Shown: positions 11,943-63,526 of the stretch, in pieces
How positions within the stretch are numbered: the stretch's first letter is position 1
Layout: every line of letters starts with the position of its first letter
Assembly (NCBI GenBank): GCA_965214095.1
Contig: OZ243938.1
Location: 3,616,001-3,680,000 of the forward strand
Source of the DNA: Candidatus Poribacteria bacterium
GTDB lineage: Bacteria; Poribacteria; WGA-4E; WGA-3G
Direction of reading: 5' to 3'
Length of the DNA stretch: 64,000 bases
Notes under the pieces: model-generated
What the model was told of the DNA's origin: nothing
What the model saw: the letters and a program-made list of their open reading frames with translations, nothing else
The model's database searches: none
Program-made: the position numbers and the translations under genes

Positions 11943-12141
11943 TTTTTGGATTACATAGATTGTGTCGTCAGTTGGGTTTAACCATTTAAATCCGACTTTT
12001 TTTGTTTGGACATTGTCTGAACCAGGATTTTCAGGATAAGAGTCTGATATTCTAAAGTTTCTATCTAATACTATTTCTGATTAATAATATATCATTTTAT
12101 CGTAGGTCGGGTAGAGGCACGAAACCCGACATGATAGACAC

Positions 12142-12286
12142 CATAAGCGTCAATTTAGCATCCTTCCAAGTACCGGTTTTGTGCCAAATACCTTCATAGA
12201 GGTTCTTGCACAGGTTCCGTGCGGTTAGGAAACCGCACCTACCGGCCTGGGGAAAACGCCTAATTTACACTAAATTGATGCCTATG
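12142..12286 (+). mobile_element. IS4-type MITE (internally deleted copy) nested in a REP-C doublet (12102-12346)
   Basis: Ends CATAAGCGTCAATTTAG / CTAAATTGATGCCTATG; flanked by GTAGGTCGGGTAGAGGCACGAAACCCGAC and its inverse. Confidence 0.8.
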
Positions 12287-12381
12287 GTTACTACATGATA
12301 GACACAATCAATATGCGTCGGGTTTCGTGCCTCTACCCGACCTACGAAGGAGATGAACTTTAACATTCAAAGGAGAAAATA

Positions 12382-23153: not shown

Positions 23154-23230
23154 ATTTAATCCTTTTTTTTGTGATGTTTTAATTGTAACTATAGTTTGGA
23201 CAGTTTTTTGGTGTATAGCACACGTTGAAC

Positions 23231-23487
23231 CTTATGCGTCAATTTAGCGTCCTTCCAAGTACCGGTAGGTTCGGTTTCCTAACCGAACCGGACTCACCCC
23301 CGTGTCGGTAGGTTCGGTTTCCTAACCGAACCGGCTTTGTGCCAAATACCTTCATAGAGGTTCTCGCGTAGGATCTGGTTCGGTTAGGAAACCGAACCTA
23401 CCATCACGGGGCGTAGGATCTGGTTCGGTTAGGAAACCGAACCTACCATCACGGGGCGTAGGATCCGGTTCGGTTAGGAAACCGAAC
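23231..23487. repeat. REP-A cluster with a 45-bp tandem array (about 3 units)
   Basis: CGTAGGATCTGGTTCGGTTAGGAAACCGAACCTACCATCACGGGG repeated from about 23367. Confidence 0.8.
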
Positions 23488-24974
23488 CATAAGCGTCAAT
23501 TTAGTGATTTTTTGCTGCATTTTCAAGGTGTTCTAATGTTGTGTCTCTATTAGCACGTCTCTCAATGTAGCACCCATTTTGGAAAGCGTGTTTTATTTCA
23601 TCAAAAGTTTGCCGAAAAGACATTATAGACTTGCGGAAACCTATTGCAAGTGTGCGTGCGAAGGTGCTAATAAGTTCTGCTGTTTTTGTTAGACTATGTT
23701 TTAGACATCGCCAGCCGACCCTTAACATGATCCAGTGCCGCATAATTGCGACGATGAGTTTTGCATATAACTCACATAAGATTCTATATGGCTTGTCGCT
23801 ACGGGAGGTATCAACTTTTCCAATGCTTTTGAAGCACTTGAACATCAACTCAATCTGCCATCGGATGCGTGCGACAGCACAAATCTGTTCAGCAGTCAGA
23901 TGGTCTACTTCTATATTAGTAATGTAGATATTCCATCTTGCGAGCTGAAGTCGTTTTGGTGAAGGTTTCGTCTGCTTCCGCTTCGCACGATGTTTTATCT
24001 CCTTAATACGCTGTTGGTTTTCTGTTTCTGAAAGTCTTTGAACAACTAATCGTGCTTTGAGACGCTTGTTTTTACCTATAAAGATTTGTTTGTCCTTGAA
24101 GTTATCAGAACCCTTCTTGAGCCATTTTAGCAAGCAAAAAGGGTCACCTGTTTCATCATAGAGAAAACACTGGACTTTGTAGCGTGATATCCAAAAGACG
24201 TTTGCATCGGAAAGTCTTTTGAAGGTATCAAGTGAATAATAGCCGAGGTCTGCGAGGCGCAAACTGCCGGCGGGTAGCATATCAATCTGCTTTTCAATAG
24301 TGCTATCAGCGGTGATACCATTGGTCAGTTCAAAGTGTTCAAAAGTGCCTGTGGCACTATCAAAACGCAGGTGGAGTTTCACGGCAGCTGTGTTCGGTTT
24401 GTTCTTTTTGCTTCCACCTTCCCAAGTTTCGTGGAGCACATCAGGGAGTGTAATCCAAGAACTATCTTGTAAATAGACACCAGTGAACTTTTCAAGGAGC
24501 GGAAGCGTTTGCGGGTCGGCAGAAATAACCTGGGAAGCAGTAGCATCAAGGATAACTTTCAGGGTCTCTGCTGCTTCAGATGTAAATCGTTGTTCAATGG
24601 CTTGTCGTGAGATTGAAATCCCCAGTACACCAGCAGTTTGCGCAAGTTGTGTATAGGTGGCATCCGGGTTTTCTAACCAAGTCCAAATAAGTATTTGAGC
24701 AAAACGACTACCGTTGAGTTTACAACTTCTTTTGACAAAACCTGTATTGAGAGCTGCATCATTGGCTATAGTTGTAAGAATATGTTGCATTTCTTTGGGA
24801 ACTTGTGATAATGTATTCATTGGAAACACCTCTTTGTAGACCATAATAACTCTATATCTACATTATATATGAGGTGTTTTCATTTTTACAGAAGTTTTAT
24901 TTCATAATTTATACTTTCTCTGATTAAAAGTTGACACTTATCGGTCTTAGTGCATCCTTAAATTGACGCTTATG
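23488..24974 (-). mobile_element. IS4-family insertion sequence, 1487 bp
   Basis: Perfect 16-bp TIR CATAAGCGTCAATTTA; flanked on both sides by GTTCGGTTAGGAAACCGAAC (23468-23487, 24975-24994). Confidence 0.88.
23501..24844 (-). CDS. IS4-family DDE transposase
   Basis: QDSS, LADLGY, RWQIELMFK (YREK-like; the Y position is A). The stop codon overlaps the TIR. Confidence 0.9.
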   Translation of the reverse strand: MVYKEVFPMNTLSQVPKEMQHILTTIANDAALNTGFVKRSCKLNGSRFAQILIWTWLENPDATYTQLAQTAGVLGISISRQAIEQRFTSEAAETLKVILDATASQVISADPQTLPLLEKFTGVYLQDSSWITLPDVLHETWEGGSKKNKPNTAAVKLHLRFDSATGTFEHFELTNGITADSTIEKQIDMLPAGSLRLADLGYYSLDTFKRLSDANVFWISRYKVQCFLYDETGDPFCLLKWLKKGSDNFKDKQIFIGKNKRLKARLVVQRLSETENQQRIKEIKHRAKRKQTKPSPKRLQLARWNIYITNIEVDHLTAEQICAVARIRWQIELMFKCFKSIGKVDTSRSDKPYRILCELYAKLIVAIMRHWIMLRVGWRCLKHSLTKTAELISTFARTLAIGFRKSIMSFRQTFDEIKHAFQNGCYIERRANRDTTLEHLENAAKNH

Positions 24975-25036
24975 GTTCGGTTAGGAAACCGAACCTACCG
25001 TCTTGGGAAAACGCCTAATTTACACTACATACTAAG

Positions 25037-46163: not shown

Positions 46164-46569
46164 AGGTATTTTGCACAAATCCGGTTCGGTTAGGAAACCG
46201 AACCTACCGAACCATAGGCGTTTTCTCCAGGCTGGTAGGTGCGGTTTCCTAACCGCACGGAACTTGTGCGAGAACCTCCATGAAGGTATTTTGCACAAAT
46301 CCGGTTCGGTTAGGAAACCGAACCTACCGAACCATAGGCGTTTTCTCCAGGCTGGTAGGTGCGGTTTCCTAACCGCACGGAACTTGTGCGAGAACCTCCA
46401 TGAAGGTATTTTGCACAAATCCGGTTCGGTTAGGAAACCGAACCTACCGAACCATAGGCGTTTTCTCCAGGCTGGTAGGTTCGGTTTCCTAACCGCACGG
46501 AACCTGTGCGAGAACCTCTATGAAGGTATTTTGCACAAATCCGGTTCGGTTAGGAAACCGAATCTACCG
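46163..46569. repeat. 120-bp tandem repeat (about 3.4 units) derived from the REP-A/MITE interior
   Basis: The sequence recurs exactly every two 60-nt lines. Confidence 0.9.
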
Positions 46570-52642: not shown

Positions 52643-52731
52643 AGTTATACACCCAAAATTGTTGATACAGATATATGGTAGATTATGGAATTATTTATAC
52701 AGTCTACAACGGTGCGATTAGGAAATTGTAC

Positions 52732-53129
52732 CATAAGCGTCAATTTAGCATCCTTCCAAGTACTGGTAGGTTCGGTTTCCTAACCGAACCGGCTTTGTGC
52801 CAAATACCTTTATAGAGGTTCTCGCACAGGTTCCGTGCGGTTAGGAAACCGCACCTACCGGCCTGGAGAAAACGCCTAATTTACACTAAATTGACGCCTA
52901 TGGTGCGATTAGGAAATTGTACCATAAGCGTCAATTTAGCATCCTTCCAAGTACTGGTAGGTTCGGTTTCCTAACCGAACCGGCTTTGTGCCAAATGAGG
53001 TTCTCGCACAGGTTCCGTGCGGTTAGGAAACCGCACCTACCGAGGTTCTCGCACAGGTTCCGTGCGGTTAGGAAACCGCACCTACCGGCCTGGGGAAAAC
53101 GCCTAATTTACACTAAATTGACGCCTATG
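52732..53129 (+). mobile_element. Two tandem IS4-type MITEs (52732-52902, 52923-53129)
   Basis: Same TIRs as the IS at 23488; separated and flanked by 20-bp GTGCGATTAGGAAATYGYAC. Confidence 0.85.
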
Positions 53130-58935: not shown

Positions 58936-59016
58936 GTTTTAATCCTTTGTCCCACACACCGGTAGGTGCGATTTAGCGTGCTTCTAGGTCCGGTAGGTTC
59001 GGTTAGGAAACCGCAC

Positions 59017-59187
59017 CATAAGCGTCAATTTAGCATCCTTCCAAGTACCGGTAGGTTCGGTTTCCTAACCGAACCGGCTTTGTGCCAAATACCTTTATAG
59101 AGGTTCTCGCACAGGTTCCGTGCGGTTAGGAAACCGCACCTACCGGTCTGGGGAAAACGCCTAATTTACACTAAATTGACGCCTATG
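59017..59187 (+). mobile_element. Full-length 171-bp IS4-type MITE
   Basis: TIRs as in the IS at 23488; GTTCGGTTAGGAAACCGCAC on both flanks. Confidence 0.88.
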
Positions 59188-59264
59188 GTTCGGTTAGGAA
59201 ACCGCACCTACCAGCCTGGCGTCGGCACAAAGCCGGTTCGGTTAGGAAACCGAACCTACCGGCA

Positions 59265-63200: not shown

Positions 63201-63526
63201 CACCAGTTCGGTTAGGAAACCGAACCTACCAGCACGGGTATCGGCACAACACCGGTTCGGTTAGGAAACCGAACCTACCAGCACGGGTATCGCCACTACA
63301 CTGGTTCGGTTAGGAAACCGAACCTACCGGCACGGGTATCGGCACAACACCAGTTCGGTTAGGAAACCGAACCTACCGGCACGGGTATCGGCACAACACC
63401 AGTTCGGTTAGGAAACCGAACCTACCAGCACGGGTATCGCCACTACACTGGTTCGGTTAGGAAACCGAACCTACCGGCACGGGTATCGGCACAACACCAG
63501 TTCGGTTAGGAAACCGAACCTACCGG
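63201..63526. repeat. 49-bp tandem REP-A array, 7 hairpin copies
   Basis: GTTCGGTTAGGAAACCGAACCTACC at 63206, 63255, 63304, 63353, 63402, 63451 and 63500. Confidence 0.9.

Follow-up and report, generated by a model that had tools for sequence, protein, structure and literature searches.

An insertion sequence (IS) that lies between two complete copies of a repetitive extragenic palindromic (REP) hairpin raises the question of whether insertion duplicates the whole hairpin and, if so, what sets the length of the duplicated segment. Such a locus was analysed in the window, a stretch of 64,000 nucleotides comprising positions 3616001-3680000 of contig C1 in the 5.2-Mb genome of a Candidatus Poribacteria bacterium, a sponge symbiont. 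The IS occupies window positions 23488-24974 on the minus strand, is 1487 bp long and contains a single open reading frame (ORF; 23501-24844, minus strand) encoding a DDE transposase of 447 amino acids (aa). Its termini are perfect 16-bp inverted repeats, CATAAGCGTCAATTTA and its complement, starting CATA. The right inverted repeat (IRR), CATAAGCGTCAATTTA, is located at 23488-23503 on the plus strand, and the left (IRL), which is closest to the transposase start, at 24959-24974 on the minus strand, where it reads CATAAGCGTCAATTTAAG from the outside inward. On either side stands the same 20-mer, GTTCGGTTAGGAAACCGAAC, a complete REP hairpin with an 8-bp stem and an AGGA loop; copy 1 is at 23468-23487 and copy 2 at 24975-24994 (both plus strand), the latter followed by CTACC, the GTAG tag read on the opposite strand. 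A first-pass annotation of this DNA had described an IS between identical 20-mers forming a REP stem-loop, and its coordinates and the 16-bp inverted ends were confirmed. It had further proposed that insertion duplicates the 20-bp hairpin whole, leaving a new hairpin each time, and that this results from staggered cuts at the base of an extruded cruciform. The duplication was borne out by the analyses described here; the cruciform was not.

The genome contained 13 full-length copies of the IS (98.3-100% identical, with the ORF intact in all 13), the window copy being one of two identical copies of a 1487-bp variant. Every copy was flanked by an exact 20-bp direct repeat, with seven different 20-mers represented among the 13 and the same variant on both sides of each. 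Ten copies were inserted in REP hairpins (four variants, always in exact register), including one flanked on both sides by the rare variant GTGAGG..., and three were inserted in unrelated, non-palindromic 20-mers. At REP sites the repeat could also be read as 22 bp, the terminal C...G of the IS mimicking the bases adjacent to the hairpin. The non-REP sites leave no ambiguity at the boundary, and the duplication was therefore set at 20 bp and the ends of the IS at CAT...ATG.

Two of the non-REP insertions could be compared with uninterrupted sites in same-genus relatives, of which five were searched. At C1:4200153 the 20-mer was present once in all four relatives that matched both flanks, and at C1:4265783 it was present once in all five; the left- and right-flank alignments at these empty sites overlapped by approximately 20 nt (18-20). 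The flank of the third non-REP site, C1:4400707, was unmatched in the five relatives. For the REP insertions, an empty site was reconstructed as 20 nt of left flank, one hairpin and 20 nt of right flank, and a blastn search found uninterrupted counterparts of these reconstructions at up to 98 other places in the genome, several of them 100% identical. The comparison with empty alleles, which the first-pass annotation had put forward as a check on its proposal, was thus in agreement with duplication at the two non-REP sites. The two findings that it had named as fatal to the proposal also went its way: hairpins without an element between them were never in tandem, and the flanks were of one variant in 13 of 13 IS copies.

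Genome-wide, 412 hairpins of the window type (REP-A, allowing up to two substitutions) were counted, the closest pair being 16 nt apart, and a GGTAG motif on one side of 365 of them identified these as classical GTAG-tagged REPs. Although REP-A hairpins account for approximately 0.16% of the chromosome, 10 of the 13 IS copies lie in them at one fixed position, the behavior of a REP-targeting IS. MITEs (miniature inverted-repeat transposable elements) sharing the ends of the IS were also present. Among 146 element ends (up to two mismatches), 63 adjoined a REP-A hairpin, all at offset 0, and no hairpin edge was found at any other offset within 30 nt of the 146 ends (63 of the 412 hairpins adjoined element ends and 54 lay inside MITEs). 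A census hairpin was present on each side of 18 elements (nine IS and nine MITE copies), and the loops had the same orientation on both sides in all 18, as expected if each insertion leaves a new hairpin.

The transposase matched the Pfam family DDE_Tnp_1 (E=6.9e-23) and the NCBIfam model transpos_IS4_1 (198 bits vs. a cut-off of 115), which upholds the assignment to the IS4 family made from the sequence at first pass. The database form of the protein is 439 aa, starting from the ATG at 24820. In the 447-aa numbering, the catalytic residues are D127, D199 and E332, and their spacings of 72 and 133 fall within the IS4 pattern D(60-110)D(100-150)E; the triad was conserved in 48 of 48 aligned rows tallied, two frame-shifted rows having been left out of the tally. 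The single ORF and the short inverted repeats beginning 5′-CA are likewise of the IS4 type. Of the IS4 signature Y(2)R(3)E(6)K, the R, E and K are present and the Y is replaced by A in the window copy (ARIRWQIELMFKCFK). In the rows from Poribacteria this position is occupied by A, V or I, and the Y is retained in Planctomycetota, Methylobacter and outgroup rows; from the alignment, the loss looks like a secondary event within the long-repeat clade described below. The NCBIfam model for the IS1634 family scored 30.9 bits on the transposase against a cut-off of 100, and an IS1202 model was absent among its four NCBIfam matches. Where the element departs from the family is in the duplication. In the available text of the IS4 review (De Palmenaer et al. 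2008, PMC2266710), the duplications of all seven subgroups are put at 7-13 bp, or about one turn of the helix, and the only exceptions named are IS1549 and IS1634, which have long, variable repeats of 8-514 bp; here all 13 copies had a 20-bp repeat, and lengths across the clade were 19-21 bp.

The boundaries of related elements were set by searches anchored on the CAT...ATG termini. Forty-three related loci were recovered from Poribacteria (49-90% identity), 36 of them with both ends, and these 36 included 11 with exact 19-bp repeats, nine with exact 20-bp repeats and two with near matches. The length of the repeat tracked the hairpin, being 19 bp where the hairpin had a 3-nt loop (19 nt in all) and 20 bp where it had a 4-nt loop (20 nt), and this held for elements with identical or nearly identical transposases (L002/L003, L029/L030). 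At non-REP sites in the Poribacteria relatives, the repeats were 20 bp (L012) and 19 bp (L017). On whether the length at non-REP sites follows the REP length of the host, L017 is the single data point; genomes with 19-nt REPs hold one to five copies, and in genome G021 no end motifs were found beyond its three IS copies.

Long repeats were not confined to Poribacteria. In Planctomycetota they measured 21 bp (L044), 20 bp (L073) and approximately 20 bp (L078), and in a Planctomycetaceae genome (G028) five of seven elements had exact 20-bp repeats, which started 3 bp inside a longer GTAG-tagged stem (GGT/GGGT...ACCC/ACC, the slashes marking the limits of the repeat). An element on a plasmid of Candidatus Chlorohelix (Chloroflexota) had an exact 20-bp repeat, and one on Herpetosiphon pHAU01 had a repeat of 18-20 bp, one end being ambiguous. 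By the same method, outgroup elements from Bacteroidota, Clostridia and a deltaproteobacterium (24-30% identity; 1530-1770 bp) gave 9-12 bp, and these served as the short-repeat control, the copy of IS231B being flanked by an inverted and not a direct repeat.

In both phylogenetic trees one clade held every long-repeat row and no short-repeat row. In a quick tree of 50 rows, support for this clade in the Shimodaira-Hasegawa-like approximate likelihood ratio test (SH-aLRT) was 100. In a more careful tree (45 rows, with IS231B, which lay outside the clade, as the root), support was 95/88, and 93/85 without L163 and L165; these two rows were disregarded, having end branches of 3.1 and 2.3 and probably representing the wrong reading frame. 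Excluded from the careful tree were 11 near-duplicate or frame-shifted rows (L073, L078, L010, L012, L013, L030, L059, L064, L036, L041 and L003).

We consider it probable that the approximately 20-bp stagger is an intrinsic property of this transposase clade, coupled to a symmetric preference at the ends of the target, and that it does not arise from cruciform cutting. Eight unique non-REP targets contained 3.5 complementary pairs on average against a background of 2.5 and had no internal palindrome. Symmetrised, they gave G at position 1 in 13 of 16 cases and G or T at position 3 in all 16; in seven of the eight targets, the two outermost bases were complementary. Since the non-REP targets share their ends, and the REP stem (GTK...MAC) supplies the same ones, the preferred site was formulated as 5′-G-N-K...M-N-C-3′ at a spacing of 20 bp. 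The transposase would join the two ends of the element at target phosphates separated by 19-21 bp, or about two turns of the helix, and gap repair would then duplicate approximately 20 bp. The preferred site would be two-fold symmetric, each strand having G-N-K at its 5′ end; the half-sites would be 5′-GTK...MAC-3′ in Poribacteria and GGG...CCC in Planctomycetota and Chlorohelix, and the spacing would flex by one base with them, to 19 bp in 19-nt and 20 bp in 20-nt hairpins. REPs would be hit in exact register and duplicated whole because those of the GTAG type offer both half-sites at the right spacing. Judged by its sequence, the IS is an active element of the IS4 family, and we infer cut-and-paste DDE chemistry from that membership and recognition of the half-sites by a symmetric transposase dimer.

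The strongest competing explanation is structure-dependent insertion, in which the REP forms an extruded cruciform or hairpin, is cut at the base of its stem, and so sets the duplication length by its own palindrome. It would account for the finding that all 63 hairpin-adjoining ends coincide with the base of the 8-bp stem, for the strength of the preference that brings most IS copies into so small a part of the genome, and for the agreement of 19-bp and 20-bp repeats with 19-nt and 20-nt hairpins even where transposases are identical or nearly so. An extruded cruciform is unneeded, however, since the 20-bp repeat occurs at three non-palindromic sites in this genome. Non-palindromic targets with 20- (or 19-) bp repeats, some with single-copy orthologous empty sites, the Planctomycetaceae stem that continues 3 bp past the duplication on each side, and the Chlorohelix and Herpetosiphon targets, which are not hairpins, all count against it. 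The cruciform cut proposed at first pass was therefore set aside on account of the non-palindromic sites, two of them with a single 20-mer when empty, and of the offset cut in G028; structure-dependent insertion appears unlikely.

That there is no duplication at REPs, the element landing between pre-existing hairpins or recombination supplying both, is highly improbable. REPs are abundant (412) and often arrayed, and many relatives do have unlike hairpins on their two sides. Throughout the genome, however, hairpins without an element between them were at least 16 nt apart, so tandem hairpins of the kind that would imitate a duplication were not present beforehand; the loops were alike in orientation in 18 of 18 elements, rare variants (GTGAGG...; GTTCGG...CCGCAC) appeared on both flanks, and uninterrupted paralogous sites held one hairpin. 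Least credible of all is a longer IS with terminal hairpins of its own, like IS200/IS605 or the REP-associated tyrosine transposase (RAYT) systems, for although a hairpin stands at each end of every REP-site copy and some relatives have inverted-repeat flanks (L028, L033, L041, L045), the flanks are direct repeats that vary from copy to copy (seven 20-mers among the 13), hairpins are missing from three copies, the enzyme is DDE and not HUH Y1, and no REP-A lies within 1.5 kb of the Y1 genes found in this genome.

Several observations weigh against an intrinsic stagger. A repeat whose length follows that of the hairpin is equally expected from a structure-dependent cut. No matching repeat was found at 14 of the 36 Poribacteria loci, one of which was cut by a contig end, and 10 of the 14 had REP-like hairpins that differed in variant, or were inverted in the loop, between the two sides. 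In one Poribacteria genome (L028-L033, L038 and L042) none of eight copies had matching flanks, several being flanked by exactly inverted hairpins, up to 33 nt in L033; this suggests either frequent recombination between copies or a second outcome of insertion. Mismatched flanks are attributed to what was probably recombination between copies in REPs of opposite orientation. Six of 30 MITEs had unlike flanks, and one had only a displaced 13-nt repeat. The GTAG tag lay on the IRL side in nine of ten REP insertions, a bias that a symmetric site leaves unexplained and that was not seen among the Poribacteria relatives. Lastly, the transposition chemistry and the symmetry of the dimer rest on family membership, and a PDB sequence search with the transposase returned no match at E≤1.

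Among known systems, IS231 of the Bacillus cereus group resembles the window element in its single-ORF DDE organization and its ends of the form CAT-------AA--TAA (Table 1 in the portion of PMC2266710 available). The IRL fits this consensus, and the IRR has TAG at positions 15-17. The ends of the IS231B copy, CATGCCCATCAACTTAAGAA, are of the same type, and in a tblastn search of plasmids 697 of 785 matching records were from Bacillus at approximately 28% identity, one of them annotated as IS231B. IS231A reportedly prefers a symmetric GGG(N)5CCC target and generates 10-12-bp repeats. The IS231 subgroup is described, in the same part of the review (PMC2266710), as having coherent transposases, many pairs of which exceed 50% identity, and 10-12-bp repeats, in contrast to approximately 28% identity and 19-21 bp here, and the hosts are different. 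The Poribacteria lineage also lacks the Y of the YREK signature, and IS231B falls outside the long-repeat clade. The element likely represents a new IS4-family subgroup, on a branch related to IS231. IS1634 and IS1549 (IS1634 family), once grouped with IS4, share the property of long direct repeats, which are variable at 8-514 bp according to the available review text (PMC2266710) and fixed at 19-21 bp, within ±1 bp, in the elements studied here.

REP targeting in ISs had been ascribed at first pass to the IS3 and IS110 families. Both stand, but the list was incomplete: the accessible text of PMC1525189 records REP targeting for five IS families, including IS4, in which ISRm22 makes 6-bp repeats. 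ISRm22 of Sinorhizobium meliloti (subgroup IS4Sa) is like the window IS in that all of its copies lie in REPs at a fixed point on the palindrome axis (PMC1525189 and PMC2266710, each in part), and some of its copies have mismatched repeats, which that account attributes to recombination (PMC1525189). It differs in its 6-bp repeats and in splitting the REP, which the window IS duplicates whole. IS1397 and ISKpn1 (IS3) and IS621, ISPpu9/10 and ISPa11 (IS110) are also specific for REPs at a fixed position; as far as the same text goes (PMC1525189), they belong to other transposase classes, have 0-3-bp repeats, and split the REP without duplicating it. A precedent for duplication lengths fixed by subgroup is the IS1202 family, for which the available text (bioRxiv 10.1101/2022.12.17.520857) gives 27-28, 15-17 and 5-6 bp and proposes subgroup-specific indels as the cause; it is a different transposase family, and its targeted subgroup (xrs sites) has short repeats. 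In full-text searches (19-21-bp duplications; Poribacteria IS/REP), with ISfinder and paper supplements outside the search, no published description of a long-duplication IS4 clade was found.

The MITEs were recovered as 30 end pairs, spaced by 61-287 bp (169-173 bp in most), with internal REP hairpins, those of approximately 170 bp carrying two. They share with the IS just the terminal 16-17 bp; given these common ends, the IS transposase would presumably mobilise the approximately 170-bp MITEs in trans. Immediately inward of the shared end, the left end of the IS (24943-24958) reads AAGGATGC, and that of a MITE (52748-52760) reads GCATCCTT, the reverse complement of the IS sequence. The tally of flanks proposed at first pass was thus extended from the IS, with its uniform 20-bp repeats, to the MITEs, of which nine had exact 20-bp repeats and 18 of 30 matched with two mismatches or fewer. 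Five further MITEs fit repeats of 19-21 bp or a 1-nt indel on manual reading of the flank table.

Three MITE loci in the window illustrate the range of targets. A 171-bp MITE at 59017-59187 (plus strand) has these ends too and encloses two REP hairpins; on either side of it, at 58997-59016 and 59188-59207, stands an identical copy of GTTCGGTTAGGAAACCGCAC, an asymmetric variant. Two MITEs (52732-52902 and 52923-53129, together 52732-53129 on the plus strand) have just one 20-mer between them; the target GTGCGATTAGGAAAT(T/C)G(T/C)AC occurs three times at this locus, at 52712, 52903 and 53130. A 145-bp MITE (12142-12286, plus strand) interrupts the loop of a second type of palindromic repeat, larger than the REP hairpin, and the only repeat common to its flanks is one of 13 nt displaced by 6 nt; the host repeat, at 12100-12345, is GTAG-tagged and has arms of GTAGGTCGGGTAGAGGCACGAAACCCGAC and its complement. 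In G028, tandem IS copies (L157/L161, G028:C19:17333-20124) likewise have a single 20-mer between them, and their outer flanks form a 30-nt inverted repeat with one mismatch.

Matches to the IS end motif and to the REP hairpin were far more numerous in the window than chance would give (21 at up to three mismatches vs. 0.83 expected, and 56 vs. 0.00 expected, respectively). The window IS itself was inserted in the last hairpin of a degenerate REP-bearing MITE and short REP array at 23231-23467 (plus strand). Compared with the other MITEs of the window, this element shows a motif resembling an end at 23231-23246 and carries hairpins at 23269, 23312, 23378 and 23423, and its right part resumes beyond the IS at 24995-25030. 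MITE, REPs and IS together occupy the intergenic spacer between pepA and a cupin gene (23154-25036, 1883 bp). This spacer was short in 12 same-genus relatives (approximately 76 nt in the closest), and 11 of the 12 had neither a REP nor an end motif there; the remaining relative had gained five REP hairpins independently. The whole complex in this spacer is therefore specific to this genome, and none of the 12 relatives had an allele lacking the IS alone. Public short-read contigs break at the repeats, and no record among them spans 23468-24994; "skip" joints in such contigs (from 23290 or 23333 to 24978) have sides of fewer than 30 letters within repeated hairpins.

A degenerate copy of the IRL lies 32 bp inward from the outer end, at 24928-24942 (plus strand). 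It agrees with the outer end at 12 of 15 positions (a 14-nt match with two mismatches in the motif search). The same inner motif was present in a relative of 90% identity (L009) and was absent from a relative of 84% identity (L008) and from the other relatives examined. In an alignment of left ends, it lined up with the true terminus of L008, L001 and L005, of which it is the positional homologue, and the window lineage had 32 extra outer bases relative to these sister elements. The degenerate inner end noted at first pass is thus real, and the existence of sister elements without the outer 32 bp supports its suggestion of an outer end gained at a later stage, in this lineage.

The REPs themselves appear in several settings. 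An array of seven hairpins in the same orientation with a 49-nt period was found at window positions 63206-63519, and seven hairpins in alternating orientation with 55- and 65-nt spacing, resembling a bacterial interspersed mosaic element, at 46184-46563; neither had IS ends nearby. The genome encodes four near-identical 141-aa Y1 (IS200-like) transposases (C1:81623, 2170036, 2385609 and 4230081) and has a partial Y1 match at C1:2666075 (a 115-aa open frame). In one same-genus relative, a Y1 gene is flanked by REP-A-like hairpins in inverted orientation (L145). As that Y1 gene is REP-flanked, while the IS enzyme is DDE and not the HUH Y1 transposase between REPs that characterizes a RAYT (REPtron) system, the REPs were assigned to the RAYT type and the IS was placed outside that system. 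Contig C2 (32,066 bp), with a GC content of 64% vs. 41% for the chromosome and without any REP-A hairpin, may represent foreign DNA or contamination from binning.

Duplication length is regarded as a signature of DDE families, since it reflects the geometry of the strand-transfer complex. A monophyletic branch with 19-21-bp duplications in Poribacteria, Planctomycetota and Chloroflexota, together with 10-bp elements that share its end sequences, provides a natural pair of relatives for asking what sets the stagger. Candidate determinants in the transposase are the D2-E segment (133 residues vs. a median of 137) and the C-terminal part (116 vs. a median of 127). IS-annotation tools that allow for IS4 repeats no longer than 13 bp would overlook these duplications or misplace the ends. 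The element also shows how a transposon can exploit REPs without destroying them: each insertion leaves two intact hairpins, and the number of REPs therefore rises. More tentatively, a branch of IS4 may have shifted its strand-transfer sites from one helical turn to two and thereby become a copier of REPs, the IS and its MITEs possibly constituting a route of REP multiplication independent of RAYTs. If so, the spacing may be tuned to the REP length of the host (19 or 20 nt), each insertion in a REP would make a second complete REP, with a MITE bringing two more inside, and each new flanking hairpin would be a fresh target, giving rise to self-extending arrays of elements with single hairpins between them.

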